DNA of 63,681 nucleotides, counting the filler, from Hausera hauseri (Eukaryota): the NCBI GenBank assembly GCA_046269625.1. It is 12 parts of 12 records of this genome, joined end to end, with 100 filler letters (N's around TTAATTAATTAA, not from the genome) between each part and the next. Parts side by side here need not be neighbours in the genome. Positions count along the whole stretch, not along the records: positions 5,493 to 10,376 come from JBJURY010403923.1; 11 more parts are not named here. One strand, written 5' to 3'. Shown here in pieces: positions 3,930 to 31,340 of this stretch (within the stretch, counting starts at the first letter, position 1; each line of letters opens with the position of its first letter). The notes under the pieces are model-generated. The model did not search any database and was not told where the DNA came from. It saw only the letters and a list, made by a program, of their open reading frames with translations. Both the position numbers and the translations under genes were made by a program.

Positions 3930-4160
3930 AGTCATGGGGTAGAAAACATGACACATACATGCACGGTTAATAAGGCGGAGATTGGAGGCACACAGTCATG
4001 AAGTGGAATGACACAAGTAGGCGAACTGTATGGTTTTTTGGTGTGAAAAATTTTGAATTTGGCGCGAAAGAATTGTTTAAATTTTGGTTGTAAACAAAGG
4101 GATTTATGGCGCAGAGTGGGTTTCATTAATCCCACCCCCTTTTGTTTTAATTTTGAAAAC
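3930..4160 (+). repeat. Interspersed repeat family, copy 1
   Basis: Colinear with the reverse complement of 35890-36105, including an identical 18-mer TTTGAATTTGGCGCGAAA. Related segments occur at 5240-5340 and 53460-53900. Confidence 0.85.
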
Positions 4161-4198
4161 TTGATATAAAGACCCATGTGAAAGTGTCACTTATAAAA

Positions 4199-4492
4199 AT
4201 GTCTCAACCAGATATCTTGGCATCATTTAAATCAAAAATGACAGTTTATGCAGCAGTGATTAAGTTGAAACAAGAAGATATTCAGCGAGGATTACATGAA
4301 TTGCAGGCTTTGTTTACCATAACGGATGATTTAGCATATGTAGAAACGGAGATTCTGTTGGAGGTAATACGAAGCATATTGATTATTGTTAGTCCAATGA
4401 TTGAAAAATTAATCAGAATGACAGAAGAATTAGAAAACAGTCAGAAGGAACTGAACAATGCAATTAATGACTTTACTAAATATGGACAATGA
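4199..4492 (+). CDS. Small intronless 97-aa helical/coiled-coil protein, function unknown
   Basis: TATAAA at 4165-4170, A-rich context before the ATG at 4199, and AATAAA at 4500-4505 just after the stop. Heptad-like C-terminus (IEKLIRMTEELENSQKELNNAINDF). Confidence 0.55.
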   Translation: MSQPDILASFKSKMTVYAAVIKLKQEDIQRGLHELQALFTITDDLAYVETEILLEVIRSILIIVSPMIEKLIRMTEELENSQKELNNAINDFTKYGQ

Positions 4493-4666
4493 TATTTGTA
4501 ATAAATCTTGTAATCAGTGACTTGTTGTTTTTATTGCTATAGAAAACAAAACACATGTAAAAGTTTTATTATATATCAGTTTACTAATAAATACACTAAA
4601 CATGCAAGTCCTTTAGATTTTTCTTCGTTCCATCTCTTTTGCATCAATATGGACAGTTGTTGGTTA

Positions 4667-5115
4667 TTAGGCTTCAGGCATAATTCTATATTTGTGCAAT
4701 ATACCACTTTCAATTGTATCAGTTAATTGTTTAAGAAGATTGGTAATATCGAAATCTTTTCCATAAGTGTCAATTTCAGTACCATAGGCATTACACTGGT
4801 TAATCATTGATAGTTGATCCACATAATCATTAAACGTTCTTTTGCTCTCATCTGAATCATTTTTACACTCTTCACAATCCTATTAAAATAATTAAATAGA
4901 GTATATTGAACATAAAATTATACGCTTATCACAGGAGTTTCCTCTTCTTCAATTGTATCGTCCGTTTCATCCACAACAGTGTCATCAGCTATTTCATTAA
5001 ATTGTTCTGTGTCATCAGCTATTTCATTAAATTGTTCTGTGTCATTTGGGTTAATAATTACGACTTTACCATTGTCGTCAGTGTCAACTTGAAGACAGAT
5101 GGTTTGTATTCCATT
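4667..5115 (-). CDS. Two-exon acidic protein fragment, 5' end missing
   Basis: Exon ~5115-4924 (NGIQTICLQVDTDDNGK...EEEETPVIS, with a 30-bp tandem duplication), a 44-nt GT..AG intron at 4923-4880, and an in-frame exon 4879-4667 (DCEECKND...YRIMPEA*). Confidence 0.45.
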
Positions 5116-5492: not shown

Positions 5493-5496
5493 TCCT

Positions 5497-7191
5497 ATGG
5501 TACCTCCGGTTACCATCGAAGAACTTACCGAAGGAGTGAAAACTACTGACGATTTTCTTAAAAGATTAAAAGGAATCAAATTGTCTCCTAATTGCAAGAA
5601 ATTTATAAATGAAACAAGAAAAGAAGAAAACGAACCGCTAACAGATGAAAAACCTCCATTGATAATCGACGAAACTGAAGAAACAGATTTACATAGAAGA
5701 ATGAATAAAGTAAAAAGACCAGCCCGAAAACGAGCAGAGGAGAAACAACAGGCACAAAGAGTAACATATCCAGTAGAAATTGAGAGTAACACGACCTATC
5801 CAATTGAAGCAATACCGCCAATAATCAAAAGAAAACCTACTACGAGGAAGATGCGTTTATATAAACCCAGCAACATCAGAGTTGGTAAAAAGAAAGCTCA
5901 AACACCCGTCGATGTAATGCAAGAAACCCTCTGTGATACGACTGATTACAGTTTCGGAGATGACATAAACATTGCCGACTTCAACGAATATGATTTGGAT
6001 ACATTTTATCTTGATAAATTTCCAGATGATGAAATAGATGAAGGAATAGGAACTCGACCAACTTTACTTAAAAGAATGATTGCTCTACAAGAGTTTCCTG
6101 AGGAATTAGATGACTTATTAATGGCATATCTCAACAAGGATGAAAATATCCAAGAGATTTTAGAAGCTGCCGAAAAGTTAGCTAGCAAAGCGGCAGACAA
6201 ATGGAGATACAATGCTACACCACGGACATTGTTGAAATTATTAGGAAAATATTTGCTAAGTAATAAAGACTATGTAGATCAGAAAATTATAGTTCGACCT
6301 TTTGTTAATGGAACTGTTTTTCCTAACCTAGAGATGAGTCTAGACAGTCGAGTTGCATATCTTGAACAGATGATTAAATGTCAAACCAAGAGAACCATGA
6401 ATAAAATTTTAGATTCAGAAGAATTATTAATAAATGTTGGATTGATACCCACAAATATCAACGCGGTTAAAGTTACGCCAACAAAGGAATTAACTCAAGA
6501 GGAGGCTAAGCGGAAGATAATAAATGGAGAAAATATACATGAAGATGAATCTATCATGTGAGCTCAACATAAACAAGAATATCTACAAAATTTGCAGGAA
6601 ACAACAAAGGAAAACTTGAAGAAACCACTTATTGATACAAACGATGAGGAAATCGTACAGCCAATAGTAAGAAAAACATTGTTTGACCTTAACAAGCGCG
6701 GTAGATTTAACAAATTAATAACAGTTGCTAGGAACTTTGCTACTCAAATAATGGATTATGAAACCTTAAAACTGCGCAAAGAATACAAAGAGGTAAAGAA
6801 ACCAGCTAGAGAAATATATTACATAAAAGTTGGAAAAGATCCACTAACTCTTCGATCTCCAAAGTGGAAGAAACTAGTTAAAGAGCAATTAAAATTTATG
6901 GAAACCCTTAAGAAAAATTCACAAAGGAAGAACTTCACAATTGATGACGTTGTACAGCTAATCCTAAAGAAACCATCTCGTGTAAATTTTGAAAAAGCGA
7001 TGCTGTTATTAATATCCGAGACACTTAATGAACCTGAATTGAAAAATACAACATGCAAAATAATTCATGTTAGCAAATCAATAATCCCACAAATCAAAAG
7101 ATGGAGTGATTTATTTTTACAAAACGAAAACGAAAAACAATTCGAGATAGAACGATCAAATGTAAAAAAGCTTTTCAGGAAATTACTTTAA
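5497..7191 (+). pseudogene. N-terminal unknown region of a retroelement-like polyprotein (about 565 codons, one in-frame TGA)
   Basis: ORFs 5497-6561 and 6592-7191 are in the same frame, separated only by TGA 6559-6561. No recognisable gag motif. Confidence 0.5.
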
Positions 7192-7280
7192 ATGCATATC
7201 AGGCAGAAACTGTCTCCATTGTCATGGAAAAAATGACGAGCCAATTAGAAGAAGAAATCTAGAAAAGTGATGGTGTAAAG

Positions 7281-9127
7281 TCCAGTGGAATATTCTTGCA
7301 ACTAATATTACTCTTATTGGTGTTGTTTTAGAATTTCAGAAGGACTGGAACAATATTGGCCTATGATTGTGACCAAATATACGAAGGAAGCTACTACTCA
7401 TTGATGGATCTTCAATCATGCCCGGATGCCCTTCCAAAAAAATTAGAGACTCAAATAAAGAATTTATTTATTTACTATGATAAAACTATGTTACACTTAG
7501 AAGGATTAGAGTGTTCTCTACGCGTATCTCGTACTATTTCTTATTGCGGTCACCTACACAACGACTCTTACATTAAACCTACCACTATACCTAAATAGGT
7601 GTCAGTAAATCCAACATTGTAGAGATGCGGGAGAAACCCAGCAACTGAAATGGGGAGACATCTTATTGACCGCCATAAAAAGACAAGTTACTCAACAAGA
7701 AAAATGGATTGCTGGTTACAAAGATAAAAAAGGCAATAGTAAAGGAGGAAATTTTTATACCGGAAAAAGTATAGAAGCAGGTATCGTAGTGCGTGATCAG
7801 TACGAGATTGAAATTAAGGATAATACTTATATTTTCAAGACTAGTACAAATACAATGATAGACGCATCCTTTTGTAAGTTACAAACAGGATATTGTCATA
7901 CAAGAACATCTACGATAATTTGGACACCACCAACGAGTTACGATTGTACATTGGTACAAATCAGAAAGGGAGAATTTAGTGTCACTACAGGAAAACGTTA
8001 TGCCCGCCACTATGAAACTAATTTCGAGCATACTAATATCCAAGTTATTCCGGAAATAAAAACTGCTAAGTTTGTAATATCCAAGGATATCAAAGGAGGA
8101 GTCAAATTTATACAGAAGGATGCTATTACAAAGTGTGGACAACAAGTATTTAGTACAAACTACGATAACTACATTATATCAGAAAGAGAAATTAAAGGCG
8201 CAGATAATTCGCCTACCATAAGGCTTAGCTAGTGAATATTGCCGATTACATTGCAAATCGAGATGACTTTCTATTCTATCTAACTTATAAAACAATCGAA
8301 GAAATATATTCGGAGACAATTCAAAATTTTTGTAGAGTGAATTTCGAAACTCTAAGAAATCGTTTGGCCATTTATGCATCTAACTCAGAGATGATCACAA
8401 TAACCCTTCCTTTTGGCGAAGGAATTCAGGGCAAAGTCCTATGAGAAGTGTTATATACATACAAATGTAAACGATTAAACCTACCCTTGATTACTGGTAC
8501 TCCTTGCTACTTGGAGATACCCGTTAAGTATAATGAAGAAATCCGATACGTTCAACCAATTACCAGAGTACTTCTGGCAACACACACAATACCCACTGAA
8601 ATCCAAAATTGTTCGGCATTAAATAAACCATTTATCAAGTACGACAATCAGGACATTTGGGTTAGATTACCGGATAGAGAGAGTTAAAGAAAGACCTAAG
8701 AAATTAAGTATGGCTAATTTGAAGCATGCAATTGAAACCGATATGTGTATGGATGTGTCAAAATCCGCATTATATAGCAAAAAAGAAATTGGTTCATTTG
8801 TGAAGTTTTTAGTCTATCCCCGACAGAGAGCAAATAGTAAATCGCGGAATACACCGAGTCATCGACGATACAGTAGGAGATGGAAAATGGGACAGGTTAT
8901 GGACACCTGACGCCTATACTAAAATCGTTTCAAATTTGTGGTATAAAATGTGGGGTGGATTCCTGAAATTCGGCCAAGCAGCTTCAGGGTTTCTTGCCAT
9001 ATACTTCATTATACAGACCCTGAAAGTCTGTATCAATTCCGTATTAAATGCTTATGAGATTTATAATCTAATTGGACTATCGCTGAGCATAATGAGCTCT
9101 ATTTTCCCCATTTGGCAAATCTATTAA
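7281..9127 (+). pseudogene. Chuvirus-like (class III, gB-related) envelope glycoprotein, fragmented
   Basis: Signal-like GIFLQLILLLLVLF in frame with LAYDC..YSLMDLQSC. Also ECSLRVSRTISYCG, CKLQTGYC..IIWT, LYTYKC, CYLEIPV..YVQPITRVL, and the C-terminal MWGGFLKFGQAASGFLAIYFIIQTLK..AYEIYNLIGLS transmembrane block. Order and spacing match chuvirus-type glycoproteins. Several stops and frameshifts. Confidence 0.8.
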
Positions 9128-9293
9128 AGCTTATCATGCGAAACAATGGCGAGGAAAATTAGAAAAACATATTGGCTATAAATAAGAGAAACAATTTCTG
9201 GAGGACACTCCATCAAGTTCAGATGACAGAAATGCCCCTAAGTATTATCCTACAACAAGGATTCCTAAAGATACGAGGAGAAAATTAAAGGTT

Positions 9294-10376
9294 ATGAAGC
9301 CAAAGAAAAAGGATAAACAAAAATTACCTGCTGCACCATATGATAATAAAACAATGCCTATTTGTAAATTACCAAATCTAACAGATTTAACGGATCCTTA
9401 CGCAAAAAAGGAAGATTACATAAAATTATGTAACTTGCCAAAATACCCTCAGGAAGAGATACTTCAATCCATTATTATACGGAACATGGAAAGCAATCGA
9501 GTAACATTACCTGCTTTACCCAAAATGGGTACTTTACCCTCGGTACCTTATTATCAAGTAACTAGATTAATAGAAACTCAGTCAGACGGACGATTTCATT
9601 TAACTACTTCCGAACTTAACAATAAACAACAGACAACATTAAAGAATGTCAGTTGCTATCCAGACTTGACTGAACTGAAAGATAAACACAAAATATCAGA
9701 AACTGATACTCAATCACTGGATAGTTTAACGGTCATTTTATCTAATAGCACCAACCGACATTGTTTGTCTAGTTACACTTTGATGGAACCGCATATTGAC
9801 GATCACAACGATGTATTAACGTTCCTTGAACTATTACGAGACAATAAACCATATACCACAGTCCATTTTGGTACTTTTGACTTCAATGCTATGGTAGACA
9901 CAGGAGCAAACGTTGCGTTAATAGCGAACCATGCAATTCCAGAAGAATTACAATCTCAAATAAAATTGGCAACTAAAGACTCACCCGGTACTACTACGGC
10001 TTTCCAGCAATGCAGTAAACCTTATGGATATTGAAAAAGTGAACCATGGATTTGAGGACAGAGAGTCAAGATAACTTTTCATGTAATAGTTACTTTGGAT
10101 CCGCGATGCATTTTGGGTATGAACGTGTTGCGAAAGTTGGAAAGTATACACATAAACCTACAATCAGGATCAATTTGTCCGAATAATGAAGATAAACCCC
10201 GTAATTAAAATAAAATAGACATATAGTTAGGACATGTTGAAAAAATACCACCCAATTTCCCAATTGTTATACACGCTAGAACAGTCTTTCCAGACAACCA
10301 TGTCATTGGGTATGTACCAAAATTTCTTCGAAATGAGCTTATATTACAACACTATTGCGTTAATGTAATCGGAGGA
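9294..10376 (+). pseudogene. Retropepsin (aspartic protease) region of an LTR-retroelement pol, truncated at the contig end
   Basis: AMVDTGANVALI active site, then FHVI..LDPRCILGMNVL after a stop/frameshift, then a Gypsy-like post-protease linker (KIPPNFPIVIHART). Confidence 0.75.
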
Positions 10377-10499
10377 NNNNNNNNNNNNNNNNNNNNNNNN
10401 NNNNNNNNNNNNNNNNNNNNTTAATTAATTAANNNNNNNNNNNNNNNNNNNNNNNNNNNNNNNNNNNNNNNNNNNNCATTAGAATATCAAATACAATAG

Positions 10500-10889
10500 T
10501 TGCGGGCCGAAAACGCAGCCCTACATAATACAATAAACAATATCAACGATAGATTAAATGAAATCTCTATGACTCAACGAAAGTATTTCGCCTACGATCA
10601 CACATGCTGTGTACCCAGAGGTCGATCACCTTCGCCTGCGCAATCGCTGATCTGTTTTTACCATGATAGGTTTGCTCATAAAGCACAAAAATATCATCTC
10701 GGGTACGGCTTTTACACCCAAAAGTATCAAGTTAACAATACTATTTGCATTTACCATGCAAAGTTTAAGCATTACGCACATAAGTGTATCCCTGGTTGTT
10801 CCTTTAGAAGAAACACTCAACATACGAACGTCGGACGTTCTGTCTTAACTTCTAACAGCCGCTTAAGTTCACCACTTCCAAAAAACTAG
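10500..10889 (+). CDS. gag: Gag C-terminal fragment with two CHCC-type zinc motifs
   Basis: CFYHDRFAHKAQKYHLGY (degenerate) and CIYHAKFKHYAHKCIPGC; ends PKN* at a slippery site. Confidence 0.8.
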   Translation: MRAENAALHNTINNINDRLNEISMTQRKYFAYDHTCCVPRGRSPSPAQSLICFYHDRFAHKAQKYHLGYGFYTQKYQVNNTICIYHAKFKHYAHKCIPGCSFRRNTQHTNVGRSVLTSNSRLSSPLPKN

Positions 10890-10921
10890 TTCCGCCGCCA
10901 GAGCTTCCGGCGAGTCCTGGC
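10880..10921 (+). promoter_or_regulatory. -1 ribosomal frameshift signal (A AAA AAC plus pseudoknot), copy A
   Basis: In-phase heptamer 10880-10886 immediately before the gag stop, a 6-nt spacer, stem cgccg/cggcg, and loop ccag pairing with downstream ctgg. Confidence 0.75.
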
Positions 10922-12857
10922 GAAGGCCATTCTCCAATTTCTAGCAGCTGAAAACTTTCTTTCGCCGTATTTACAGTTAAAGCAGTAACAAAGTTACCAA
11001 CAACTCGCCACATAGATTTCCTAGTCGATTTAGGTGCAGCAATTACTTTACTGCCACGCATCTTTCCAACTCAACACATTTCATCCAACTATAAACTTCT
11101 ATATACAGCTTCCGGACAACCGCTACATGTTTCCGGTACTTGTAGGCTTTCTTTTACCCTTCCGAAATTCACTCCAACGTTCCACTGGACGTTTACCGTT
11201 GAAAACCTCCAGACAGCCATTTTAGATTCCGACATTCTCTTGCACTATAATTTCCTTGTCGATTGCAAAGAACGTTGCTTAACAAGTGGTTGCAATAAGG
11301 AGCGAGTCGATCACGCCGATACCATTTCGGCTGTCGTGTGGATAAATGCAACTCGAAAACTGATATTAAAAAAACCGTTGAACAAACCTTTTTTATACAA
11401 TTATGGTACCTTGTTTTATAAGTTGTTGAATAATATTACGGACGACTGGATTTTGCACGGCGATGAGCATGATTCCTTTACCACTGCCAAATCATTAGAT
11501 AAAACTACCACCTACAATACCATTTTCAATGCTACCATCCTGCATCAAATACCACTTCATTCAAAAAGACTGGTCTTTTACATCAGCCAATACCACTTTT
11601 CACCACATTGTGACAGAACATCAAAGACCTATCCGCCAAAAAGTGCGTCCATTATCTCCTCATCGTAGACAGACCGCTGAAGCCGAATTTCTAGAGCTCG
11701 AATGTTCCGGCATTGTACGTCGCTCAAATTCCCATAGTCGTCGTCATTACATGTCGTGCAAAAGAAGGAAGAAAATTTTAGACAATGTGGTGATTATCGT
11801 CAGTTGAACACTTTGACAATATTTGATGCATACTCGCTACCACTCATTAAGAATATCTTACACAGTCTTAATAACACCACAATTTATTCTACCATTAATT
11901 TCTTCAAAGCCTACCACCAAATTCCGGTATATCGACGACACATTAATTGTTTCCCTTTGGATCCAATAACAGGAGGAACTTTTACAACAGCATAAGCTGC
12001 AGATCAATTTCTCCAAATGTCACTTTTCCAGAAGCGTATAAATTTCCTTGGACACATTATTTTTTTGAAGGTCACTCGCCTCAGCTCGATCGAGTTGAAG
12101 CCCTAAAAAATGTGCAGCTACCTCGAACAAAAACAGAAATGAGGAGCTCTTGGGGAACTTTGCACTTCGCTCACAAGTATATGCCGTACTGCTCTGAACT
12201 TACGCACCATTTGCTCACCTCAGTGATGAAAAAAACACCAACCAATACAATGGACTTCTGAACTAGTAAGCAAATTCGAAAGGCTAAGAGGTTTGAAAAC
12301 AGTCGAAATATTAGCTTTCCCTAAGCATGACGCACAGCTTACACTTACTACAGACGCCTCTAGTACCGCCATAGGGTCTATACTACACCAGATTCATAAA
12401 GGCAAAAATTAGCCGTTTTAGTTCTTTTCAGGCAAACTAACACCCCCTAAAACCAAATACTCTACATTCGACCGAAAACTACTAGCGAGTGTTTTTATCT
12501 TAAAACATTTTTCACAGCTGCTTACTGCTCGGCGCTTCACCATACAAACTGACCATAAACTCTTAATAAACATCATGGGAATGAAACATCCTTCTACTCG
12601 ACAGGAACGACAGATTTCGTACTTGTCGACATTTAATTTGGAAATAAAACATCAACGGCGTTAACAACTTAGTCGCCGACTTTTCATCTCGGCCAATTAG
12701 CTCAATTAACTTTAAGCCCATTTTTACTCAAAGCCAGCTTCCCGAAAACCAACCACCCCAAGACGTCCTTAGATCTTTTAGTTCCTGCAATATCGTCCAT
12801 GGTGTAGCTTTCGATACGTCTAAACCAGTACAGTCTAAAGTAACCTTAGCTTCTGCC

Positions 12858-13874
12858 TTGCAAAAACAGGCATTCAACAGGGTACATTCTCTACATCAAC
12901 CCGGTGCTAAGGCCACCTTTCGCTTGCATCACCGACAAGTAATCTGGCCGTCTATGCGTTCTGATGTGCAATCGTGGGTTAAGGAATGTGTGTCCTGCCA
13001 AAAATTTAAAACCATCAAGCATTTGAAACTACCACTATATCATTTCCCTTGCACATCACGTTTCGAGTCCGTACATATTGATCTTGTCGGTCCTCTCCCT
13101 CCTGACAACGGTCATCAGTTCATTTTGATTATGATGGATCGTTCCTCACGTTGGCCAGAAGCCGTCCGTCTGCGAAGCACTAACACGGACACAATAGCCG
13201 ACGTTTTCATACGCACTTGGACCAGCAGGTTTGCATCCCCTAGGTTCATTATTACGGACCAAGGTACTCAGTTTGAGTCAAACTTGTTTAAATCACTGGT
13301 TAACTGATTAGGAATCAGCGATATACACACAACACCATATCATCCCCAATCAAATGATCTTCTAGAGAGATTCCACAGAACACTTAATACGTCACTGAGA
13401 ATCCTCTCTGAATCCAATAGCAGTTGGACAGCCCTTCTTCTGTTAGTTTTACTGGGTTGGTGAAACACTCCTTCCACTTCTACAGGTTGTTCACCTACGG
13501 AAGCCCTATTCGGAGAACCCGTGCGTTCATTATTTGCGTTAACTGCCTTGGAAGATACACCTACAGACGAAGCTATCCGAACTGCACAGAGCCACTTTGT
13601 CTCAGTCAGCAAAGATTCATTCTACAGAATAATACATAACAAAAAACCTTACCTACCCGATAATTTATATTCTGCAAGGTTTGTCTGGCTGAGAAATCAG
13701 ACGCTGTGCGGTTTGCAACCACGGTATCTGGAGCTCTACAAAATTGTTCAATTGAACTCTCACAATGCCATTATTTCTAAAGACGATAAGGAACTAGCGG
13801 TGCATATCAACAACGTTAAGCCTGCCTTTTTCGTAGACGATACCCCAAAATTGAATCTTCTAACTCCTTTCTGA
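12858..13874 (+). pseudogene. Gypsy integrase, interrupted
   Basis: HSLHQPG..CVSCQK, FESVHIDLVGPLP, MMDRSSRWPEA, ITDQGTQFES, YHPQSNDLLERFH, and a GPY/F-like tail; in-frame stops. Confidence 0.9.
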
Positions 13875-14255
13875 CTCTTCCGCCTTTTCCCCTTTCAGTT
13901 CCTCCACCACCTGCACCCCTTTCCATTCCCCTAACCCGAACTCCACTTCTACAAACTTTACAACCTTTACCTCCCTTTCCCTTGCATCCCCTCCTCCAAC
14001 TCCTTATTCGTTCTTAAACGACACAACACCTTACACGACGAAATCCGACATTTGTATACCTCAATCACCTCAGCAAGCAGATTCAAAAACATTAAAAATG
14101 CGCAAATCAGTCACATTTAGTACCTACAGTAAGGAGATTAACACTGCAGAGGTACAACGTCTTATTTATACAAAGACCACTTAGACAACCTACACCGTTT
14201 CTACACATTTTCCCTTTCTTACCTCTTTAGTCGTTGCTTTGTCACGGGGAGATGA

Positions 14256-14523
14256 TGTTGTGCCCAATAAGGACTTGTAAATACACTGTTATTGTTTTTT
14301 TCTTTTACTGTTATTTGTTTTTGTAATTGCAGACGAGTTAATGCACTTTTGTCATTTTATCTCGTCGTGTCAGATTTTAGCTATGTGTACGATGAGCTGC
14401 CGGTCATTTCCCGTTTGTTTCCAATAACAATTCTTCATCAGTACCCTCGACGACGTGTTCCCAAAATAAATCTTGCTTTCCCGAATTAATGTCATTCAAC
14501 TCCATGGGTCCCGATAATAGCGC
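14256..14523 (+). repeat. 3' LTR of Gypsy copy A, truncated by the gap
   Basis: Begins with TG directly after a polypurine tract downstream of the integrase; AATAAA near 14465. Confidence 0.6.
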
Positions 14524-14899
14524 NNNNNNNNNNNNNNNNNNNNNNNNNNNNNNNNNNNNNNNNNNNNTTAATTAATTAANNNNNNNNNNNNNNNNNNNNN
14601 NNNNNNNNNNNNNNNNNNNNNNNGCCTTGGTCTCAATGACCTGGAAGGGACTTCTTTTGGCTTTTCCCTTTTCAGGGTTAGCAACGTTGGTTACGTATTG
14701 TAACCCCAGATTCTATGAATGTAGGCGTAGCCCTTTAAGCCACACCTATGGGTTTATCCCTGCGCTTCGCGCCAACACTGAAAACTTCAAGTCCACGCCC
14801 ACCTGCTGTGGGCCACACCTCGGTCTACTATAAAAGTCACCCCTGACCGAGACACTGCTCCCAAAAAAATTTTCAAACCAACTACGAAGACTTCAGAAC

Positions 14900-16471
14900 A
14901 TGTTTACCAGACCGCCTTTCAGAAGATGCACGGCATGCGTCAGCGGGGTCATCCTAGCGGAGGACAAACACCCGCTCTGCGAATCATGCCTCGGAGCCGA
15001 CCACGCCCGACAGGCCATGGACCGGCCCCCCACCTGCCGAGCTTGCCAGCTCCTGTCGACGGAGGAAAAGCAGCGCCGGCTCGACCTCTTTCCACAGCCG
15101 GAAATGATGGTTCGACCGAGGGAGGACACGCCATTCTGCTTTGGTTTCGAGCAGATGATTGACTACGCGTCCTCGGGGGTAGCTAGTGCGACCGGTCCGC
15201 TTTCTCCCGAAGGTTCGGACCCGGCTTCGCCTTTCCTCCGCCCGCCGGAGATGACTAGCAGCCGTGCCCCGCCATCTCCCCAGGGAGGCGCGGGACCGGC
15301 AATACCCTCCACCGTGGGAGCAGTCGGGGCCACGGAAGTGGCCGCCATGTCCGACGCACCGGGCCCAGTTTGTCCACCTGAAGGACCAGCCCAAGCGTCC
15401 GACCGACCTTCATACGCTGCGTCGTGCAGCAGCCAAGCACCATCTCCGCAGTTCGACTTGAGTGAGCAGGACGCGCACGGCTCGCTGGACAGCGCGCTGC
15501 CGGAATTAATCAGGTGGGCAGCCAGCGCGTGGGGCATGCCGGTCCCTGAAGGCACCACGCAGCCATCCTCATCACGCCTGGCGGGAAGGTTTGCTGCTAA
15601 GGCGGGGGCCCAGACGCAGTCCATCTGGCCCTGCGCTCCTGAAATCCTCAGCCTGCTGCAAGCCGAAAACAACGACCCACTAAAGAACAAAGCTCCGGTC
15701 TTGTCGTTTGTGCGGGCGACGAAGGTCCAGGGGCTGACGGACGTGGCGTTCCCTCCGGTACCGCCGCTGGAGCCCAGCTTGTCCGCGGTGTTTGGACTCA
15801 AGCCTGCGAAACATGTGGGTAAGACTGTTTCACCACCGTCAGCGGCGGACCAGTTTTCAACAAAAATGCAGGACCGCATTCATAAATGCTCAGCGCAGGT
15901 GGGTGCTGCGGCCAACATCATAGCGCTCCTAGCGTTCAGCGTCGGGCGGGAGCCGACGCACGAGGCGGCAGGAGCAGCCCTCGACGCCATTACCAACATG
16001 TGCGAGGTGCTGGCGACTTGCTCAGCGCGGATCTCAGCATGGACTACGCTCCTCCAGAGACAAGTCTGGCTGAAGCTTTCTCACTCCATCCCAGAGGAGG
16101 TGAAAAAACAGCTGCTGGAGGGGCCGATTTCGTCGCAAGGTCTGTTCGGAGCGCACTACCAGACCGTCTTCGAGCAGCTACGCTCTTCCTCCGAAGCCCT
16201 CGAGCAGGTACGGAAGCATGCACCGTCGCCTCGGGCGGACCCACGCGCAGCGCGTGGACCGGTACGCCCACGGGAGCAGGGCAGAGCGTACCGCAGCCAA
16301 CAGAGGTTTTCTTCGCCCTCTCTGACCTTCACCACCCCGCACCCTGCTACACCGAGGAACCACCCGTCCCAGTACTCCCAGAGACCTGGGAGCTCCAGGG
16401 GGAAGAGCCGCCAGCAACCCCCGTGGGCCGGTCAGCACCAGACCACGAGAAGAGACCAGTTAAAGAAATGA
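14900..16471 (+). CDS. gag: DIRS ORF1 Gag-like protein
   Basis: N-terminal CxxC..DKHPLCESCLGADH..CRAC zinc motif and C-terminal QRQVWL..LLEGPIS..GLFG, typical of vertebrate DIRS1 gag. Confidence 0.9.
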   Translation: MFTRPPFRRCTACVSGVILAEDKHPLCESCLGADHARQAMDRPPTCRACQLLSTEEKQRRLDLFPQPEMMVRPREDTPFCFGFEQMIDYASSGVASATGPLSPEGSDPASPFLRPPEMTSSRAPPSPQGGAGPAIPSTVGAVGATEVAAMSDAPGPVCPPEGPAQASDRPSYAASCSSQAPSPQFDLSEQDAHGSLDSALPELIRWAASAWGMPVPEGTTQPSSSRLAGRFAAKAGAQTQSIWPCAPEILSLLQAENNDPLKNKAPVLSFVRATKVQGLTDVAFPPVPPLEPSLSAVFGLKPAKHVGKTVSPPSAADQFSTKMQDRIHKCSAQVGAAANIIALLAFSVGREPTHEAAGAALDAITNMCEVLATCSARISAWTTLLQRQVWLKLSHSIPEEVKKQLLEGPISSQGLFGAHYQTVFEQLRSSSEALEQVRKHAPSPRADPRAARGPVRPREQGRAYRSQQRFSSPSLTFTTPHPATPRNHPSQYSQRPGSSRGKSRQQPPWAGQHQTTRRDQLKK

Positions 16472-16498
16472 CGGTGTGCAGGGGATGCTTTCTGCAAC

Positions 16499-19400
16499 TT
16501 GTTTAATGTCGCTAATAAAGATTCTGTTACACAAAACAGTGTTTTTTATTCAGACATGATGGTTGTTTCTTCTCCGAAGTTCGTGAACGCATCTCCAAAC
16601 ACAGGTAACAAACAAACGGTTTTTTCCACTCAAGATTTCGCCCCCGCTCTCTCCGCAGCGGTGGGGGCGCGCTCACGTGACTTTCAGACACCGAGCACCA
16701 CATCTTTCAAACGAGTCAGAGAAAACGATGCATTCTTTCAAAATGTTAACTTTCATGAGCCTGGTCTGGACGCACTAATACCAGCCAGGACTTTTTCGCC
16801 TGTTTCTGTGACCAAACAAACAGTGGGTGATGTCGCTGACTCGCCTGAGGTTGAACGTTTTTCATGCCGGCACGATTCAAGTGCTTGCCAATGCTGCACC
16901 CGTGCGGCGACGTGCAGCAAACGTCCCTTTCCAGCTGGGCCTCCCTTGGGCCAATGCGGATTTCTTCCACTTGGCGGCGGTAGAGGCCAGCTTATTTTCT
17001 CTCATGCAACAGAATCCTCTGGCCACACCATTGACAAACCACAGTGCAGCGTGGTTTCAAATGTGTCCCTTGAACAGCTGGTTACGACGTCTGATTCGCA
17101 GAGGTTACACTCTGCAATTTGCAGAGACGCCTCCCAGGTTCAATGGAGTTTTGGAAACAAAACTCACATCGCCTGCACAGGGCGAGGCGCTGCGAGTGGA
17201 ACTTCTGGAACTATTGGCGAAACACGTCATTTCCGGGGTTCCCCCGGGAGAGGAAATGACCGGTTTCTACTCGAGATATTTCCTGGTTCCCAAGAAATCA
17301 GGCGGGCTCAGGCCGATTTTAGATTTATCAACGTTCAACAACTACATCATGAAACGTCCCTTTCATATGCTGACAGTGAAGCGCCTGCTCGAGCAAGTGA
17401 CACGGGGGGACTGGTTTGTGTCGATCGATCTCAGAGACGCATACTTTCATGTGCCGATCGTCACCAAACACAGGAAGTTCCTCAGGTTCGCTTTTCAGGG
17501 GACATGCTACGAGTTCAATCGCCTGCCGTTCGGATACGCGCTGGCGCCAAGGACCTTCACGAAAATCATCGAAGCAGCATTGGAACCGCTGCGCTCGAGG
17601 GGCATCAGGATCCTCTATTACATCGACGATCTATTGCTCCTGTCTCGCTCCAAAGAGGAAGCTGCTGCACAGACGGTGATTTTGGTGAGTCATTTATCCC
17701 GGTTAGGCTTTGCCATAAACTGGGAGAAAAGCTCTGTTTTCCCCACCCAGCAGATAGTTTTTCTGGGAATCAACCTCTGTTCTTTGAGCATGACGGCGGT
17801 CCTGTCGGATCAGAGGAAGGCCTCGCTAACGTCACTCCTTCAGCGTGTCCGTCCCCACAGGCTAGTCACAGCGATCACAATTATGCGGCTGTTAGGAATG
17901 ATGGCCGCCGGCCATGTGGTAGTAAAATTGGGTCTTTTACACATGCGAAGGTTACAGAGGTGGTTTATTCGCCAGAGAGTAGACCCGGTTCGTCACAAAG
18001 GACGCCGACTCATGGTTCCTCCGTCGGTGACAGAGGACTTGGTGTTCTGGGGGAACCCCAGGTCTCTGTCGAGTGGGGTTCCCCTGGGCAAAGTGACGTC
18101 ATTCAGGACGGTTTTCACAGATGCGTCTCTCACCGGATGGGGGGGCACATGTCAGTTTCAAACGGTGAGCGGGACGTGGCCGCCCGGTACGTCTCTCCAC
18201 ATAAACGTGTTGGAGCTGTTGACTGTTTTCAAGGTTCTGAAACATTTTGCTCATATGCTCCGGGACCAGGATGTTCTCGTCCACACGGACAACAGAACAG
18301 CCGCAGCTTACGTAAACCGCGAGGGCGGGGTGCGTTCAGCCCAGCTGTTGGCCACGGCCAGACAACTGCTCTGCTGGGCGCACGCTCATCTGAAATCATT
18401 GAAGGCTGTTTACATCCCAGGCGTGCAAAACAAGGGGGCCGATATCATGTCGAGGGGGGGTCCTCTGGACAGAGACTGGATGTTACACCCGGACCTCAGC
18501 TCACTTATTTGGGGCAGGTTCGGGAGGGCGGAGGTGGATTTGTTTGCCACACGGGAGAATGCACAGTGCCCCCTGTTCTTCTCCCTGAGTCCCCACGACA
18601 ATCCACCATTGGGGGTGGATGCCTTCGCCCACAGACCTTGGCCAAAGACGCTTATTTATGCCTTTCCCCCAGTCTCTCTGTTGACGGCATTGTTGGAGAG
18701 GGTGAGAGTGGAAGGAGTATCAGTGATCCTGATTGCTCCGGAGCGCGTGAACGCACCGTGGTTTCCGGTCCTGCAACGGCTGGCAGGCCGATCTTGGAAA
18801 CTTCCTTGGAGAGGCGACGCTCTTCTGCAGGCAGGGGGAGTGATAAGGAGCCATCCTGTGATAGGTCAGCACCTGTGGGCTTGGATGCTGAACGACATCG
18901 TTTAGAATACCTTGGGTTTTCCAAAGAGGTCATTAACACCATTCAAGGTTCTCGCGCATGCTCCACGACGGCTGTTTATGCTTCGAAGTGGGCTGCTTTT
19001 CAACGCTGGTGCATGGACAAACAGCTAGACCCGTGTTCATGTCATTTGGGCTCCATTTTGTCATTTTTACAGTCACTGTTGGACAGAAATTTGGCCTTCA
19101 GCACCATTAAAACATATGCTGCAGCTATTTCATCTTGTCACGAGGGGTTTAATGACAGAACAGTGTTTAGTCACCCCCTGATGAAACGGTTTTTGAAGGG
19201 TGTTCGCCGTCTCAGACCGGTTTCTCGCACCCTTGCTCCTCAGTGGGACCTAGTCACTGTGCTGAGTATGTTAATTAGAGGCCCTTTTGAGCCACTAAAT
19301 GAGGTCCCACTAAAGTTCCTGTCACTCAAAACAGCTATGTTGTTAGCTCTTACTTCAGCTAAAAGAGTGAGTGATCTTTCTGGACTGTCTGTTTCTCCTT

Positions 19401-19930
19401 CTTTCTTAAAAATTCAGGGAGATGGAAGCTCTGCTGAGCTCAGGCCTAATCCAACGTTTATACCAAAGGTCATAACGAGTTCATTCTCATCCAGAATCAT
19501 CACACTGGATGGGTTTTGCCTTCCTCCTCACGCAAAGCCGGAGGAGGAGCAGCTACATCTGCTTTGTCCAGTTCGAGCTCTCAGATGTTATGTGGATCGC
19601 ACGGCTGCGATACGTAAATCTGATAGGCTCTTTGTACATTTCAGAGGTCGTTCTCAGGGTCAGCCTTTGACTCCTCAGCGGTTGTCTCATTGGTTGTGTG
19701 AGACCATCTCACAGGCCTACAGTTCTGCTGGTCGACAGCCTCCTGAGGGCATTAAAGCTCATTCTACCCGAGGGGTAGCGACCTCTACAGCTTTGCTCAG
19801 TGGCCTCTCAGTTCAGGAGATCTGCTCTGCAGCCTCTTGGTCATCAGCGACCCCATTTATCCGTTTTTATTTGCGAGATGTTTCCAGCTCCTCTTTGACA
19901 CATTCTGTTCTCAGGGTTGCAGCGGAATAA
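16499..19930 (+). CDS. DIRS tyrosine recombinase ORF overlapping the whole RT-RH ORF in another frame
   Basis: C-terminal ~340 aa: SAM-like YASKWAAFQRWC, catalytic R (SAKRVSDL), LCPVRAL, HSTR, AASW and FIRFY. Confidence 0.92.
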   Translation: MFNVANKDSVTQNSVFYSDMMVVSSPKFVNASPNTGNKQTVFSTQDFAPALSAAVGARSRDFQTPSTTSFKRVRENDAFFQNVNFHEPGLDALIPARTFSPVSVTKQTVGDVADSPEVERFSCRHDSSACQCCTRAATCSKRPFPAGPPLGQCGFLPLGGGRGQLIFSHATESSGHTIDKPQCSVVSNVSLEQLVTTSDSQRLHSAICRDASQVQWSFGNKTHIACTGRGAASGTSGTIGETRHFRGSPGRGNDRFLLEIFPGSQEIRRAQADFRFINVQQLHHETSLSYADSEAPARASDTGGLVCVDRSQRRILSCADRHQTQEVPQVRFSGDMLRVQSPAVRIRAGAKDLHENHRSSIGTAALEGHQDPLLHRRSIAPVSLQRGSCCTDGDFGESFIPVRLCHKLGEKLCFPHPADSFSGNQPLFFEHDGGPVGSEEGLANVTPSACPSPQASHSDHNYAAVRNDGRRPCGSKIGSFTHAKVTEVVYSPESRPGSSQRTPTHGSSVGDRGLGVLGEPQVSVEWGSPGQSDVIQDGFHRCVSHRMGGHMSVSNGERDVAARYVSPHKRVGAVDCFQGSETFCSYAPGPGCSRPHGQQNSRSLRKPRGRGAFSPAVGHGQTTALLGARSSEIIEGCLHPRRAKQGGRYHVEGGSSGQRLDVTPGPQLTYLGQVREGGGGFVCHTGECTVPPVLLPESPRQSTIGGGCLRPQTLAKDAYLCLSPSLSVDGIVGEGESGRSISDPDCSGARERTVVSGPATAGRPILETSLERRRSSAGRGSDKEPSCDRSAPVGLDAERHRLEYLGFSKEVINTIQGSRACSTTAVYASKWAAFQRWCMDKQLDPCSCHLGSILSFLQSLLDRNLAFSTIKTYAAAISSCHEGFNDRTVFSHPLMKRFLKGVRRLRPVSRTLAPQWDLVTVLSMLIRGPFEPLNEVPLKFLSLKTAMLLALTSAKRVSDLSGLSVSPSFLKIQGDGSSAELRPNPTFIPKVITSSFSSRIITLDGFCLPPHAKPEEEQLHLLCPVRALRCYVDRTAAIRKSDRLFVHFRGRSQGQPLTPQRLSHWLCETISQAYSSAGRQPPEGIKAHSTRGVATSTALLSGLSVQEICSAASWSSATPFIRFYLRDVSSSSLTHSVLRVAAE
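16827..18905 (+). CDS. pol: DIRS reverse transcriptase / RNase H / methyltransferase-like protein
   Basis: FYSRYFLVPKK, LRPILDL, IDLRDAYFH, LPFG, YIDD; RNase H FTDAS, HINVLEL, HTDN, ADIMSR; MT-like VDLFA..YAFPP. True start codon uncertain. Confidence 0.95.
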   Translation: MMSLTRLRLNVFHAGTIQVLANAAPVRRRAANVPFQLGLPWANADFFHLAAVEASLFSLMQQNPLATPLTNHSAAWFQMCPLNSWLRRLIRRGYTLQFAETPPRFNGVLETKLTSPAQGEALRVELLELLAKHVISGVPPGEEMTGFYSRYFLVPKKSGGLRPILDLSTFNNYIMKRPFHMLTVKRLLEQVTRGDWFVSIDLRDAYFHVPIVTKHRKFLRFAFQGTCYEFNRLPFGYALAPRTFTKIIEAALEPLRSRGIRILYYIDDLLLLSRSKEEAAAQTVILVSHLSRLGFAINWEKSSVFPTQQIVFLGINLCSLSMTAVLSDQRKASLTSLLQRVRPHRLVTAITIMRLLGMMAAGHVVVKLGLLHMRRLQRWFIRQRVDPVRHKGRRLMVPPSVTEDLVFWGNPRSLSSGVPLGKVTSFRTVFTDASLTGWGGTCQFQTVSGTWPPGTSLHINVLELLTVFKVLKHFAHMLRDQDVLVHTDNRTAAAYVNREGGVRSAQLLATARQLLCWAHAHLKSLKAVYIPGVQNKGADIMSRGGPLDRDWMLHPDLSSLIWGRFGRAEVDLFATRENAQCPLFFSLSPHDNPPLGVDAFAHRPWPKTLIYAFPPVSLLTALLERVRVEGVSVILIAPERVNAPWFPVLQRLAGRSWKLPWRGDALLQAGGVIRSHPVIGQHLWAWMLNDIV

Positions 19931-25560: not shown

Positions 25561-26185
25561 TTTCACATCATCACTATACAATTGCCCGAAGAATCGTAAT
25601 GTTAGTAGTTGAAGGTGGGCCCTATCCAACATCCAACTATAACGATATTGAAACTCAAGTTTAAAACAATGATTATGAGCAGATAAGTCCTAACTTTCTC
25701 CTTAGGATGTTTGCACTATTTTAATTTGCGTGTACTGCGTGCGGTGCCTTGCGTAGTTTACAAACTCTCAACTTAACTATGAAGTTTAATACGATTTTAA
25801 TTCTTAGTTTAGTGCAAGTACCTCGTAAGGAGCGAAGGAAAACTGAAATTTTAGAATTACAACAATTTATTAATAATACAATAACGATACCGTTATCACT
25901 ATCGAAGATTTACAGTTCAGAAATTCGAATGTCTTTTGTTATCAATCGGATTAATCTTAAATACAAAATCGTTGAATTCTGCTTATTCGTACTGACTGAA
26001 TAAAACTACAAACTGTACACTAATCCATTGGCTTATATNNNNNNNNNNNNNNNNNNNNNNNNNNNNNNNNNNNNNNNNNNNNTTAATTAATTAANNNNNN
26101 NNNNNNNNNNNNNNNNNNNNNNNNNNNNNNNNNNNNNNAATGTTAACATAACACCAAATACAATGCCAATGTTCACCATAACGTC

Positions 26186-26338
26186 AAATGTACCATTTGT
26201 GGATATTTAATTTCTGATCGTTTTCAGTCTCAAATTTTGGGATGCAAATTTTGTCCATACTGTATCAACGAAATTATTAAATCCGACAAAACGAAATGTT
26301 GTCCAGATAACGGAAAGTTATGTTCACAAAAGATATTG
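26186..26338 (+). pseudogene. RING-finger (TRAF-like) exon fragment
   Basis: KCTICGYLISDRFQSQILGCKFCPYCINEIIKSDKTKCCPDNGKL has RING-like Cys spacing with degenerate central ligands. Confidence 0.4.
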
Positions 26339-27329
26339 TATATCAGTTAATTGTTATCTTATGCCGTTACAAACGATAAAATAATAACACCAGTTGTTCA
26401 ATCAATCCTAAAGACCGAATTAAATCATTGACCTCCAACCAATCCCATTGATGTTGTAGCCCGAAATAACGTTGTGGAATTGCAAACAGACTTCAACAAA
26501 ATGAAATTTAATTCTCGTTTACAGGAATTCCTCCAAGATTTTTCACCAATATAAAGACAACGTCAATGTTTGGTGTTCAAGGGTCCGTTTGTCCAATAAT
26601 GAAATACAAAAACAATAACCGTTTATTCATCATTGTTTGCGAATCATAAAGTTCAGATAACGCAACTGGAGATTTAAATGTGACAGCTTTTCTCCTTTGT
26701 TCCCACTTGTATAAACGATTAATAGAAGTCTCTATACCTTTATCAGATGCCAGTATTCCTAATGACCTAATGTTACTTTTCATCACTTATCTTCATTTAC
26801 ATTTTGCGTAAATGTGTATGTGTGACAAGAAACAAAATGTTATAGAAAATTGATTAGAGTTATGGAATTATTGTTTCTGTAAATTTGAATTTAAAAATAA
26901 TAAATATCTATTCATTCTTGTGTAAATTGTTTACGATTTTCGATCACCAAAAAGGATTTTCAAATAAGACAACAAAATCTACAGGAAAATATTATCGTTG
27001 TGATTAACCTTCGGTGGATTTTTATTAACCATATCGTAACTGCAACGTATTTGGAATTTTATATCCCCGTTATATGTATAAGAAAACACCACACATGCCT
27101 TAACCCAGACCTGTACATCTGTACGCATAGTTGGCTATACAACGTGGGGTTGCAGTAGACGAAATGTAACTTTCGAACCCGGATAATGAAGAAAGTGAAA
27201 GTAAGTGAAAGCTGTCTTTTGTAACTATGGAGGAAGAATGATTTTTTATTAGTCGAGTTGGAGGTGTCGTAGGCGATGCCATCGATGATCTCAACAGATT
27301 TAAAAGCTTAAACAATATCAGATAATGGC

Positions 27330-30300
27330 TGATTACTTCTCAGGATTTCGAGGAGAAAATTGGCTGAACTGTAATTGAGTTGACCGACTGCGACAAAATG
27401 TCTGCTACTAAATTTTCGGTGCTGAAATATATTTCATAGAAAAACTAAATGTCGACAGGTATGATATATGTTGTTCTTGTCTGAGTGATGGCTGTTTTAA
27501 CGTCATAATATGAAGTAGAGGTTTATTGTCGGTTTGGATGACAAATTGACGTGATAGAAGCAAATGCTTGAAATGCTTTACCGCTAGAACTATGGCCAGG
27601 AGTTCACGATCGATTGCTGAGCATCAGCTTTCTGGCTGCGTTAACTTTCGAGAATAGAATTCTAACGGCTCATCAATACCATCGTATATTTGGTGTAATA
27701 TCGCACCAGTGGCTGTGGTGGATGCATCGGTGGTCAATATTAGTTCCACGTTGGGTTTTGGAAAAGCAAGGATTTCAACGGTTTTCAGACCTTTACGAAG
27801 GTGATCAAATTGGTTTATTAGATCAGGATTCCAGTGGATTAATTATCTTTTCTTCTCGGATGAGAGGTGTGCGAAAGGTGCCGTTAGCTCGGAGCAGTGT
27901 GGTACGTATTTGTGTACGAAATTCAGTGTCCCTAGAAAACTCCTCATGTTGGTAGTAGTAGTTGGTAATGTCACAATTTTCAACTGTTGTAAGCGATCAG
28001 GCAGGAGGAATGATTATAGGGAGTAATTATGTGGCCTAAGAAGTTGATGCATTTCTGGAAGAAATTAAATTTGGAGAAATTAATCTGCAGGTTGCTTTGA
28101 TGTAATCTGCGGAAAATAATTCGGAGATGCTCATGATGTTGTTTGATGGAGGTGGAAGGGACTGGTATGTCATCTATATATGGATGAGCAAAATCAAAAC
28201 CTGAGAGTACGGTGTCAATATGGCGTTGAAAAGTCTGAGATGCTCTACGTAGGCCGAAAGGCGTGAAAATTTTTTCATAAAGGCCAAAAGATGTGATGGC
28301 AGCAGTTTTTGAAATGTCATCAGGTGCAAAAAGAAATTGATGGTAGGCCTTGTGCAGATCAATGGTAGAATAGGTATTGGTGTTATTGAGGCTATGAAGG
28401 ATATCCTTAATGAGTAGTAGTGGATAGGGAGCTGTAATGGTCAGGTTGTTTAATTGACGATAGTCGCCACATGGCCTATAGGTACCATCTTTCTTTGCCA
28501 CTACATGAAGAGGAGAAACCCCAGGTTAATTCGATCTCCGAATGATGGCAGACTTTTCCAGTTTATTAAATTCCTGTTCCACAGCTTTACGTTTGCATGG
28601 AGACAAGGATCAGACCTTTTGTTTAATAGGCCTCTGGTGCTCTATGATTATATGCTGATAAGTTGAGGATGGCGGCTTGAAGTTGATATCCCTTTTGACA
28701 TGCGTAAACAAGACGTTGTGATGTATGATTTAAGATCGGAGTCTAGAGATAAGAATTGTTGAGGCATGTCATCAAAAGAAACAGTTGAGGTAATTGACGA
28801 AAAGCAACTGGCATTGCCACTGTTAACACACAATTTGGATTTCTGTTTTAAAATAGATTTGTGATTGTTATTCATAGTTGAAGGATGCCGACTTTATCAA
28901 AAGTTTTGTCAATAGTTGACGAGGCGTTCAACATATTTACAGAAAAGTGCCATGAATTATTCTCTAGATTGTCTGTGAGAAATTTGATTGAATTTGCTAT
29001 CGAGTTCCTGCGCAGAAAACAGCCGTATTTACAATCAACCAACGGATCATGTGCGGCCAGGAAATCCGAGACGATTATTGGTGAATTTATGTTAGCGATG
29101 AGGAACTTCCAAACAAACTTGTTCGGTAAGTGATGGAAGGTAAAAGTTAGCTCTGTGGTACCAACAATGCGTAAAAGCTGCTCACTGGCTGTGAAGAGTT
29201 GAGGAGAAGAAAAATTATTGTAAGTTGGAGTGAAAGATAACGGTAGAAGGGAAAATGTGGCTCCAGAGTCAATGAGAAAGTCTATATTTGATGAATTGTC
29301 AGAGAAGATTGCAGCTTAAAACAGAAATACTGCAGAGGTGGTATAAAGAAGGCCAGAAGAACGCAATGCATTGCCTATACCAGAAGGTGCCGTTGAATCT
29401 GGCGGCGTTGTTAGTTTTTTGAAGGATTTGAAGAAGAAGAAGAAGGGGAGGAAAAAGGAAGAAATTTATTTTTGTAATATTTGCAACCAGGCACTCATAA
29501 TTTTGCCTGTGACTGGTACTTATTATGGTAGATACAAATAGGGTTGTCGTTGAAGTACTGTTGTATGATGTTGTCTATCGAAGGATCCGTGATATGGAGT
29601 ACAGCTTCACAGAGTGTTTTGTAAGGTGTCGAGTACTGGAGCAGTTTGGAGATGTTACTGATCCGCTGCTTGACATTATCAGGCAGAAGAATTAAAAGAC
29701 TATTGGCTCTCACGAAAGAGTCAGTGATGTTGATAGATTTTAGCCACTGTTGGTGGAATTGGAGCCATGGTTTACTGGAATTGTTTTCGTCAAGAAAAAA
29801 TCCACAAAACGTAGATTTATCAAAGCTCGTGATTGTTGAGAGTTTGGTAAACGATAGATATTGCATGTACTTGTAGATTTATCATTCGAGAAAGATGGAT
29901 TTGGGTCCGATTCGCCCCGAAGGCGGACGTGGAGCGTGAAATGGATGATTGGTGACATGCGAACAGTAAAAGGGAGTCGGAAGGATGTATAGTAAAAACT
30001 TGATATGTGAAGTAGAAGCCGGAAGTATTAAATAAAAAGGATAAAGAGTTGTATTAGAGCTGTGATGTGTCGTTGAGTGGAGCTCTTATGGTTTTATATG
30101 CCTGTGATTGCTAAAACAAGAAAGGGAAATTGCTGTTAGGTAATATGAGCAAAAGGTTGGTATGCGCGGGGGCTTGGGCGGTTTTCGTTTGGACAAGAGT
30201 TTTGAGCGTGCCACCCGGGGAGTTGTGGCAGAATGATCGCACACGTGAGTGCAAATCAGCAAAAAGAATCTCACCAACCTGTTTGAATATTTTTGGTGGT

Positions 30301-30570
30301 AGGACTTCTGCCGGATTTTGCCAAATTTGACATTCTCTCTCGACTGGATTATCCATATTGACGATGTCCGAGAATTCGCTGAGGTTTAGATACTCCCGTG
30401 GAGTGTATGGCAGGAGAATATTCGACGTGGACGAGTCTGAAGATTCAGTTGTTTCGGCTTTATTGACGACATCGGCAAATGCGTCTGTTAATCGGTCGGT
30501 GAGGTTGCTGAGACAATTGTGAGTGGTCAATTGCACCGAGTGGGAATAGCTGGTCATTAACTGCATGTAA
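27330..30570 (-). mobile_element. Gypsy CsRn1-like retrotransposon, degenerate copy B (gag with internal deletion, PR, RT, RH)
   Basis: gag PWLQFHQQWL, PR IDFLIDSGA, RT ORF 27980-28501 (YRPCGDYRQLN, PFGL, YIDD), RNase H TDAS/QTDNKP, and slippery A AAA AAC at 29420-29414. Confidence 0.92.
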
Positions 30571-30619
30571 TTAATCAAAACAAATATTTGACTTCCATTA
30601 ACTTAAATAACATGGATTT

Positions 30620-31340
30620 CTAAAGTTCTTTTCTTAAGTTCGAAAGAAGAGTGAATATCAAAATAGTTGACATATATTTCTTTCTTTTCGAGAAATCTCT
30701 GGTATGGTATATTCCCGAGCGTTAGTAAATAGACCATTTGGTATATAGTATATAACGGAAGTTTTATAACGCAGATGAAATATCAGTTCAGCTATATCAT
30801 CTTCATGATCCTTTTCAAGATTTCGGTGGGACCTCTTTACAAAATATTCAACATTCATTGACGAGTTGTCATTCTCCCACATTATATATAGTGAGACATA
30901 CTGTAAACAATCATCCCTCTTTATGTAAAATTTCTCAAGAGTCATGGATATTTCTATGCGTTTTACCAATCCATCAACTCTAGCGTTATCATGAAACAAT
31001 TGTCGAAAGAAATTGGGTTTCGATTTATCCCAGCTATAACCGAATTCTTTCAGGAAATTTTCATTTCATTCTTTATAAAACTCAGTTGTCGAATCCTTCT
31101 CAATTATTGTCTTGTACTGTTTGTCTTTTCGATTCGACATAAATTCATGAACTTCTTGAAGGCATTCATATTCCGTGTCATTGAAAATTTTGAGTATTGA
31201 ATAAAGTCCAGGTAAACAATAATAAGGAGAATGTTGAAACATTTGAACTTTGTTATAATTTCTGATTTTCTGAAAATTTGGAAATCTTCTTTCCAAACGT
31301 TTGTTATTAATAAACACATTCTTAACCCAAAACGTTGACA
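30620..31340 (-). pseudogene. DRC7: Dynein regulatory complex subunit 7 (CCDC135) homolog fragment, intronless, in-frame stop
   Basis: FQHSPYYCLPGL..IFNDTEY..HEFMSNRKD, FHDNARVDGLVKRIE..FYIKRDDCLQY and RSHRNLEKDHEDDIAELIF match recalled DRC7 motifs (ARVDGL.KR; F.RNP.K...ED.AER.F). Confidence 0.75.

Follow-up and report, generated by a model that had tools for sequence, protein, structure and literature searches.

Does the retroelement relic on one contig of Hausera hauseri, in which a glycoprotein of the chuvirus type lies ahead of the protease, represent a single element with an unusual gene order, or a pile-up of unrelated pieces? The contig (JBJURY010403923.1, 4,884 bp, positions 5493-10376) is one of the joined contigs that make up the 63,681-nucleotide stretch analysed here (assembly GCA_046269625.1; hereafter the window), and the element fills it. 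We read it as a dead copy, likely of a Ty3/gypsy long terminal repeat (LTR) retroelement of the kind known in planarians as Burro or GAG-ENV-POL elements, with a live form that would have been one polyprotein, and we put the probability of this reading at about 0.8. The layout, with the envelope gene (env) before the protease, is real, but it is already known elsewhere.

A class III fusion glycoprotein upstream of a retropepsin

All parts of the element lie on one strand of the contig, in the order upstream protein, hydrophobic signal, chuvirus-type glycoprotein, transmembrane (TM) block, linker and retropepsin:

5494-6558, + strand, upstream polyprotein segment that lies between gag (off the contig) and env; stop-free frame of 355 amino acids (aa)
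6562-7188, + strand, second upstream piece, helical and basic; 209 aa in the same frame beyond one stop
7287-7328, + strand, internal signal-peptide-like hydrophobic stretch; Kyte-Doolittle peak 2.7
7332-8935, + strand, class III (chuvirus/gB-type) fusion glycoprotein ectodomain, in several frames; PF24664 and tblastn with relative P0002
8936-9127, + strand, env membrane-proximal and TM block; PF24664 and hydropathy
9128-9839, + strand, env-protease linker in the protease frame, open from 9186; no LTR-like repeat
9840-10205, + strand, retropepsin, second half decayed; PF00077 and the relatives' protease profile
10227-10376, + strand, start of the post-protease segment (50 codons, where Burro has a dUTPase-like segment), truncated at the end of the contig

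The Pfam family PF24664 (Monjiviricetes_fusion) matches four of the six glycoprotein pieces, and these follow the order of the profile: 7332-7595 (profile 21-88, E 1.3e-4), 8229-8441 (profile 306-368, E 0.033), 8445-8684 (profile 376-444, E 8.8e-9) and 8813-9124 (profile 498-592, E 1.9e-16). The other two, 7609-8229 and 8623-8907, have no Pfam match, yet they match the glycoproteins of the relatives described below at E 2e-20 and 3e-7. The initial annotation had described, from the sequence, a signal-like stretch at 7287-7328 followed by a cysteine-patterned glycoprotein that ends in a TM block, and both descriptions are borne out, the second by PF24664 running in order through 9124. The motifs that it had named were located as well (AYDC at 7359, YCG at 7542, FGEG at 8412, CY..IPV at 8505 and FGQAASG at 8969).

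The fold was examined on an intact relative, P0012, and not on the window copy. The AlphaFold2 model of P0012, built from an 18-sequence alignment (mean predicted local distance difference test score 68, predicted template modelling score 0.48), matches the glycoprotein of Tacheng tick virus 4 (E 4e-40) and other chu-like G proteins in BFVD, as well as glycoprotein B (gB) of herpes simplex virus 1 (HSV-1) in the PDB (E 3e-12). The suggested comparison with chuvirus G and herpes gB thus gives a class III match on this relative, and because the P0012 model matches both, the objection that there is no class III fusogen here falls. The window glycoprotein belongs to the chuvirus-like class III fusogens. 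It shares the PF24664 family and, through P0012, the fold with the G proteins of chuviruses and other Jingchuvirales and with herpesvirus gB; it differs from them in lying inside a retroelement polyprotein and in being at most 22% identical to the listed viral matches. Among solved structures none matches the env profile by sequence, and searching longer proteins for word-based homologs of 8229-8684 retrieved 0 of 126 candidates.

The protease that had been placed after a linker, with a DTG motif, is likewise found: PF00077 matches about 9840-9974 at E 3.6e-5, above the cut-off, with DTG at 9897, so that env lies upstream of a Gypsy-type protease on the same strand. The relatives' protease profile matches the window at E 1.9e-4 and recovers the second half at 10056-10205 (E 4.4e-5), and an open frame of 282 codons (9186-10031) takes in both the linker and the start of the protease. 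The 50 codons beyond it do not match the relatives' profile of the spacer between protease and reverse transcriptase (RT; 705 of 1000 shuffles score as high), and their best pairwise score is equalled by 32 of 1000 shuffles; a dUTPase-like label for this piece is therefore unsupported by the profile and pairwise tests.

The contig copy is dead, as had been noted, with in-frame stops near 6560, 7260, 7330, 7597, 8443, 9184 and 10033 and frame changes near 7190, 7610, 8230, 8690, 8830 and 9125. Neither a Pfam scan nor tblastn against the relatives finds RT on the contig, again in agreement with the first description.

Intact relatives and the unity of the element

When 7609-8229 was searched with phmmer against 1.84 billion representatives, 17 proteins matched at E<=1e-3; a profile search gave two further proteins, for a total of 19, of which 14 were scanned with Pfam. 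One match, P0006, is spurious, being a repeat protein. PF24664 is present in all 14 scanned relatives. Five tblastn pieces of the window against P0002 are all colinear, with a combined E of 1.7e-71, and pieces of the window match P0012 at E 3e-17 to 6e-4.

In eight of the 14 scanned relatives (P0002, P0005, P0007, P0009, P0013, P0014, P0015 and P0019) a retropepsin follows env in the same unbroken open reading frame (ORF); five (P0002, P0009, P0014, P0015 and P0019) continue into RT and RNase H, four of these with an integrase, and the remaining six of the 14 end before any protease. RT precedes env in none of the 14. In five relatives a CCHC zinc knuckle precedes env within one ORF, and P0002 (HBK71150.1; 2,627 aa) holds CCHC knuckle, env, protease, RT, RNase H and integrase in a single chain, its Pol being nearest to Ty3 among solved structures (E 5e-119). 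The RT, RNase H and integrase of the relatives are of Ty3/gypsy type, and no BEL/Pao families are listed for them. The suggestion that the whole is a single ORF thus holds in the intact relatives, eight of 14 for env plus protease, and the window copy of it is broken. Because env is followed by a retropepsin in one ORF in these eight and none of the 14 is RT-first, env and protease are parts of a single element whose layout characterizes the family and does not result from nesting.

Hydropathy peaks follow the ectodomain in the window at about 8990-9034 and 9068-9112. Nine of ten relatives have a single peak there, and P0009 has a second, as in the window. The hydrophobic stretch just before A(Y/F)DC recurs in P0002, P0004, P0005, P0012, P0014, P0015 and P0018.

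Several further observations concern the relatives themselves. P0002, a complete animal-type retroelement polyprotein, is filed under a bacterial (Flavobacteriaceae) metagenome-assembled genome, most likely as host DNA contaminating the bin. Two to four retropepsin-like repeats per polyprotein are seen in P0007, P0013 and P0015. By hydropathy, a signal-plus-TM unit appears again after the integrase in P0002 (2257-2566), P0015 (2484-2738) and P0014 (after 2779), which could be a second membrane protein and a candidate attachment partner of the gB-like fusogen; no homology is detected among the post-integrase tails of these three (97 and 923 of 1000 shuffles). DNA loci of the relatives were not found in viral, genome or metagenome contigs, for which the alignments were too diverged as queries.

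A second, more decayed env-before-pol relic stands at 50476-52972 (+ strand) on another contig of the window (49393-53979), in the same order:

50476-50688, + strand, env TM, E 3e-11
51307-51483, + strand, protease, E 1.3e-3
51686-52030, + strand, protease-RT spacer, E 7e-6
52378-52972, + strand, RT/RNase H, E 7e-9

Gag-like CCHC pieces flank this relic on the opposite strand, at 49584-50330 and about 53301-53504, and are 76% alike over 71 nt. In a public sequencing run, X1, 4,061 contigs align to the stretch and cover 30 of 30 bins; 3,060 of them are under 95% alike, and a fraction of 0.03 continues into unlike sequence. This coverage and divergence therefore point to an old, many-copy family that spans all parts. 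No RNA datasets are listed as containing the stretch.

These data bear on two other ways of accounting for the contig. The glycoprotein might be a chance insertion of chuvirus origin upstream of a Gypsy protease, the two being nested, unrelated pieces, and the 245-codon linker without a family match and the higher X1 depth around the TM block could be taken that way. Against it, the contig contains no LTR-like repeat and no direct repeat longer than 34 nt; the linker is open in the protease frame, P0007 has a linker of ~300 aa at the same place, the identical order recurs in the eight relatives and on the second contig of the window, and X1 covers every bin. We regard nesting as largely refuted and give it next to no weight. 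Nor do we find it at all probable, if slightly less remote, that env and pol were separate ORFs, divided by a frameshift or stop, with no polyprotein that spans a membrane. The frame changes near 7190 and 9125 and the stops that flank the signal stretch would suit such an arrangement, and PMC13524379, in the part available, describes three ORFs and does not use the term polyprotein. On the other side stand the eight relatives with env and protease in one ORF, five relatives having the zinc knuckle upstream as well, and the Burro env, which is described as in-frame (PMC6431247). Moreover, the breaks in the window copy are attributable to decay, because equally many lie within env itself.

Placement among known elements

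The initial annotation had proposed an independent env acquisition and a candidate new lineage. That proposal does not survive the literature, since an env in frame between gag and pol is already described in PMC6431247, and GAG-ENV-POL elements in PMC13524379. The first of these (2019) describes the planarian Burro/GYPSM1 elements, giant Ty3/gypsy elements with an in-frame env between gag and pol, and its section 7 gives the order ubiquitin-like, Bcl-2-like, env. The element studied here resembles them in an env related to mononegavirus fusion glycoproteins, which in the relatives lies in frame between gag and protease, and in an accessory region before env, for which the relatives show the same order of ubiquitin-like domain, Bcl-2-like domain and env. 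It differs in that this copy is dead and has no Bcl-2-like match; the MATH, BIR and ankyrin extras, the size, gag and the LTRs fall outside the 4.9-kb contig.

Chary and Hayashi 2026 (PMC13524379) report Ty3/gypsy GAG-ENV-POL elements with a gB-type env in Nematoda, Bryozoa (10) and Platyhelminthes (nine, six of them from Schmidtea, at 1 to 215 copies each), find such elements non-monophyletic, describe an arthropod chuvirus-like env adjoining gypsy pol, state that how gB-type elements enter cells is not known, and cite Sacco et al. 2022 for the nematode elements (NERVs). The Schmidtea mediterranea errantiviruses among them (Platyhelminthes_C1a) share the gene order and class III fold with our element, and their env is, by eye, of the same family in cysteine spacing and in the motif at the end of domain II; these elements are intact, whereas the window copy is diverged and broken. 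The motif, C...V..TNY, stands at 8134 in the window and occurs in 11 of the 19 relatives. By eye, TNY is at the end of domain II in all six Schmidtea env rows of supplement 2 of PMC13524379, and not at that place in the nematode, bryozoan and insect rows examined, where TNY, if a row was matched, stands elsewhere; the six Schmidtea rows appear to be of the same sub-family as P0004, P0007, P0012, P0013, P0015 and the window. The NERVs and the bryozoan GAG-ENV-POL elements likewise have env before pol in a Ty3/gypsy element, and their env rows appear by eye to be of a different gB-type sub-family from the window's. The NERVs reportedly carry a continuous gag-env-pro-pol ORF. Anakin, a mosquito element (PMC7642597), is also an LTR retroelement with a chuvirus-related glycoprotein, although its backbone is BEL/Pao in contrast to the Ty3/gypsy-type enzymes of the relatives, and it is not the closest case. 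Troyka (PMC12440569) was set aside as unrelated, having no env in the part of that paper available.

Upstream of env, the roughly 565 codons of protein that had been noted are present as 355 and 209 aa in one frame with a single stop between them, and neither piece has a Pfam match below E 0.2. Residues 199-327 of 5494-6558 (about 6088-6474) are similar to the region before env in P0002, P0013 and P0004: the profile of these three ranks this stretch first of 573 in the window, at E 1.5e-4 with the next at 1.2, no shuffle of 1000 scores as high, and a separate profile run gives E 8.3e-4. We would like to note that the residues were chosen for the profile test after a likeness by eye, and that a plain pairwise test, one of nine comparisons made, gives a weak result (5 of 500 shuffles). 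They are possibly a putative helical plus ubiquitin-like unit. The second piece, 6562-7188, takes the position where relatives carry a Bcl-2-like domain. P0004 has the order zinc knuckle, ubiquitin-like (E 0.031, weak), Bcl-2-like (651-748, E 0.055, weak) and env; in P0012 a Bcl-2-like region (9-70, E 9.6e-4) directly precedes the env signal and env, as does a weak Pfam match in P0007 (52-113, E 0.2). Pfam finds no Bcl-2 domain in several others, such as P0005, P0013, P0014 and P0018. With the P0012 region as query, 0 of 10 candidates among shorter proteins were retrieved, and P0004 600-770 has no usable match in the Atlas. In P0014 the pre-env slot (residues ~115-295) has no Pfam match and holds, by eye, a putative DEDD-type exonuclease-like stretch.

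Two env trees were built without P0006, P0017 or other short rows and without a viral outgroup. One groups the window env with P0002, P0007, P0008, P0012, P0013 and P0015 at 95/97, and the other leaves it unresolved.

A number of points weigh against the reading offered at the outset. The window env shares only 29-38% identity with its closest relatives, and its branches are long (3.72 and 2.29). The placement rests on env and layout, because the contig includes none of RT, integrase, gag and LTRs; the Burro and Schmidtea sequences were compared by description or by eye. The profile of P0002 and P0013 fails to recover the ubiquitin stretch of P0004, so the ubiquitin label is not carried over; no Bcl-2-like match is found in the window with the relatives' profile, a weak test built on three sequences (578 of 1000 shuffles score as high), and a Bcl-2-like label for the window piece was dropped as unsupported by it. 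Two crossings at the two post-ectodomain peaks would place the protease in the lumen. Finally, no listed X1 contig spans env to protease (the longest listed is 355 bp), and X1 may itself be the source sample.

Some of these points would suit a separate env-before-pol lineage in another animal group, arisen by old horizontal transfer or independent rearrangement: the long branches and low identity to every relative, the lack of a Bcl-2-like match in the window, and the non-monophyly of GAG-ENV-POL elements (PMC13524379). We consider this unlikely. The env sub-family motif is common to the window and the Schmidtea group and not to the nematode, bryozoan and insect rows examined, the pre-env region is common to the window and P0002, P0013 and P0004, one of the two trees joins the window to six relatives, and decay by itself lengthens a branch. 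The element on the contig is thus likely a distant relative of the planarian Burro elements. The broader proposal of a deeply diverged, many-copy lineage of env-before-pol polyproteins in an animal that is not a flatworm, nematode or bryozoan is doubtful, though we give it somewhat more credit.

Possible working of a live element, its surroundings and its meaning

Flavivirus and alphavirus polyproteins, in which an internal signal threads part of the chain through a membrane, offer an analogy for how a live element might work. The ribosome would make Gag and the accessory domains in the cytosol, and the internal signal would thread env into the endoplasmic reticulum (ER), where signal peptidase would likely cut just before A(Y/F)DC and free the env N-terminus. 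Besides anchoring env, the TM helix would bring the chain back to the cytosolic side, and protease, RT-RNase H and integrase would be set free by the retropepsin. Synthesis in this way would yield Gag, Env and Pol in a 1:1:1 ratio and hold Gag at the membrane that carries Env; the budding particles would bear the gB-like fusogen and use it to enter neighbouring or germ-line cells. What is observed of this scheme is the domain order, the single-ORF relatives and the peak before A(Y/F)DC in seven relatives; a topology of signal in and TM out would fit the hydropathy, and for the scheme to work the second hydrophobic peak of the window and P0009 must not cross the membrane. The window copy no longer encodes any working step.

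The window consists mostly of retroelement contigs. Two long frames at 14834-19927 (+ strand), of 545 and 1,152 codons, and a third of 697 codons (16812-18902) that overlaps them have no Pfam matches; tblastn places an RT-like piece at 17283-17582. An open 1,296-codon long interspersed nuclear element (LINE) ORF and ordinary Ty3/gypsy fragments make up 44927-48814 (+), 54080-59471 (-), 26139-31340 (-), 35821-40845 (-) and 10477-14523 (+), and in the Atlas only generic LINE clusters matched 44927-48814. A neighbouring contig (2480-3550, + strand, and 4157-5115) has open frames of 357, 111 and 65 codons, the first two without a Pfam match.

The analysis contributes a diverged member, and with it eight compact relatives found in public assemblies, to a class that has received little study, in which a gB-like fusogen sits within the Gag-Pol chain. 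Among the relatives the domains inserted between gag and env vary, and the design is found in a chain of about 2,600 aa, half as long as that reported for Burro. Being dead and partial, the window copy does not itself make it testable how such a chain is cut and whether infectious particles form. If the lineage does lie in a new host group, the Burro-type strategy of a single Gag-Env-Pol chain threaded through the ER would be extended to it.

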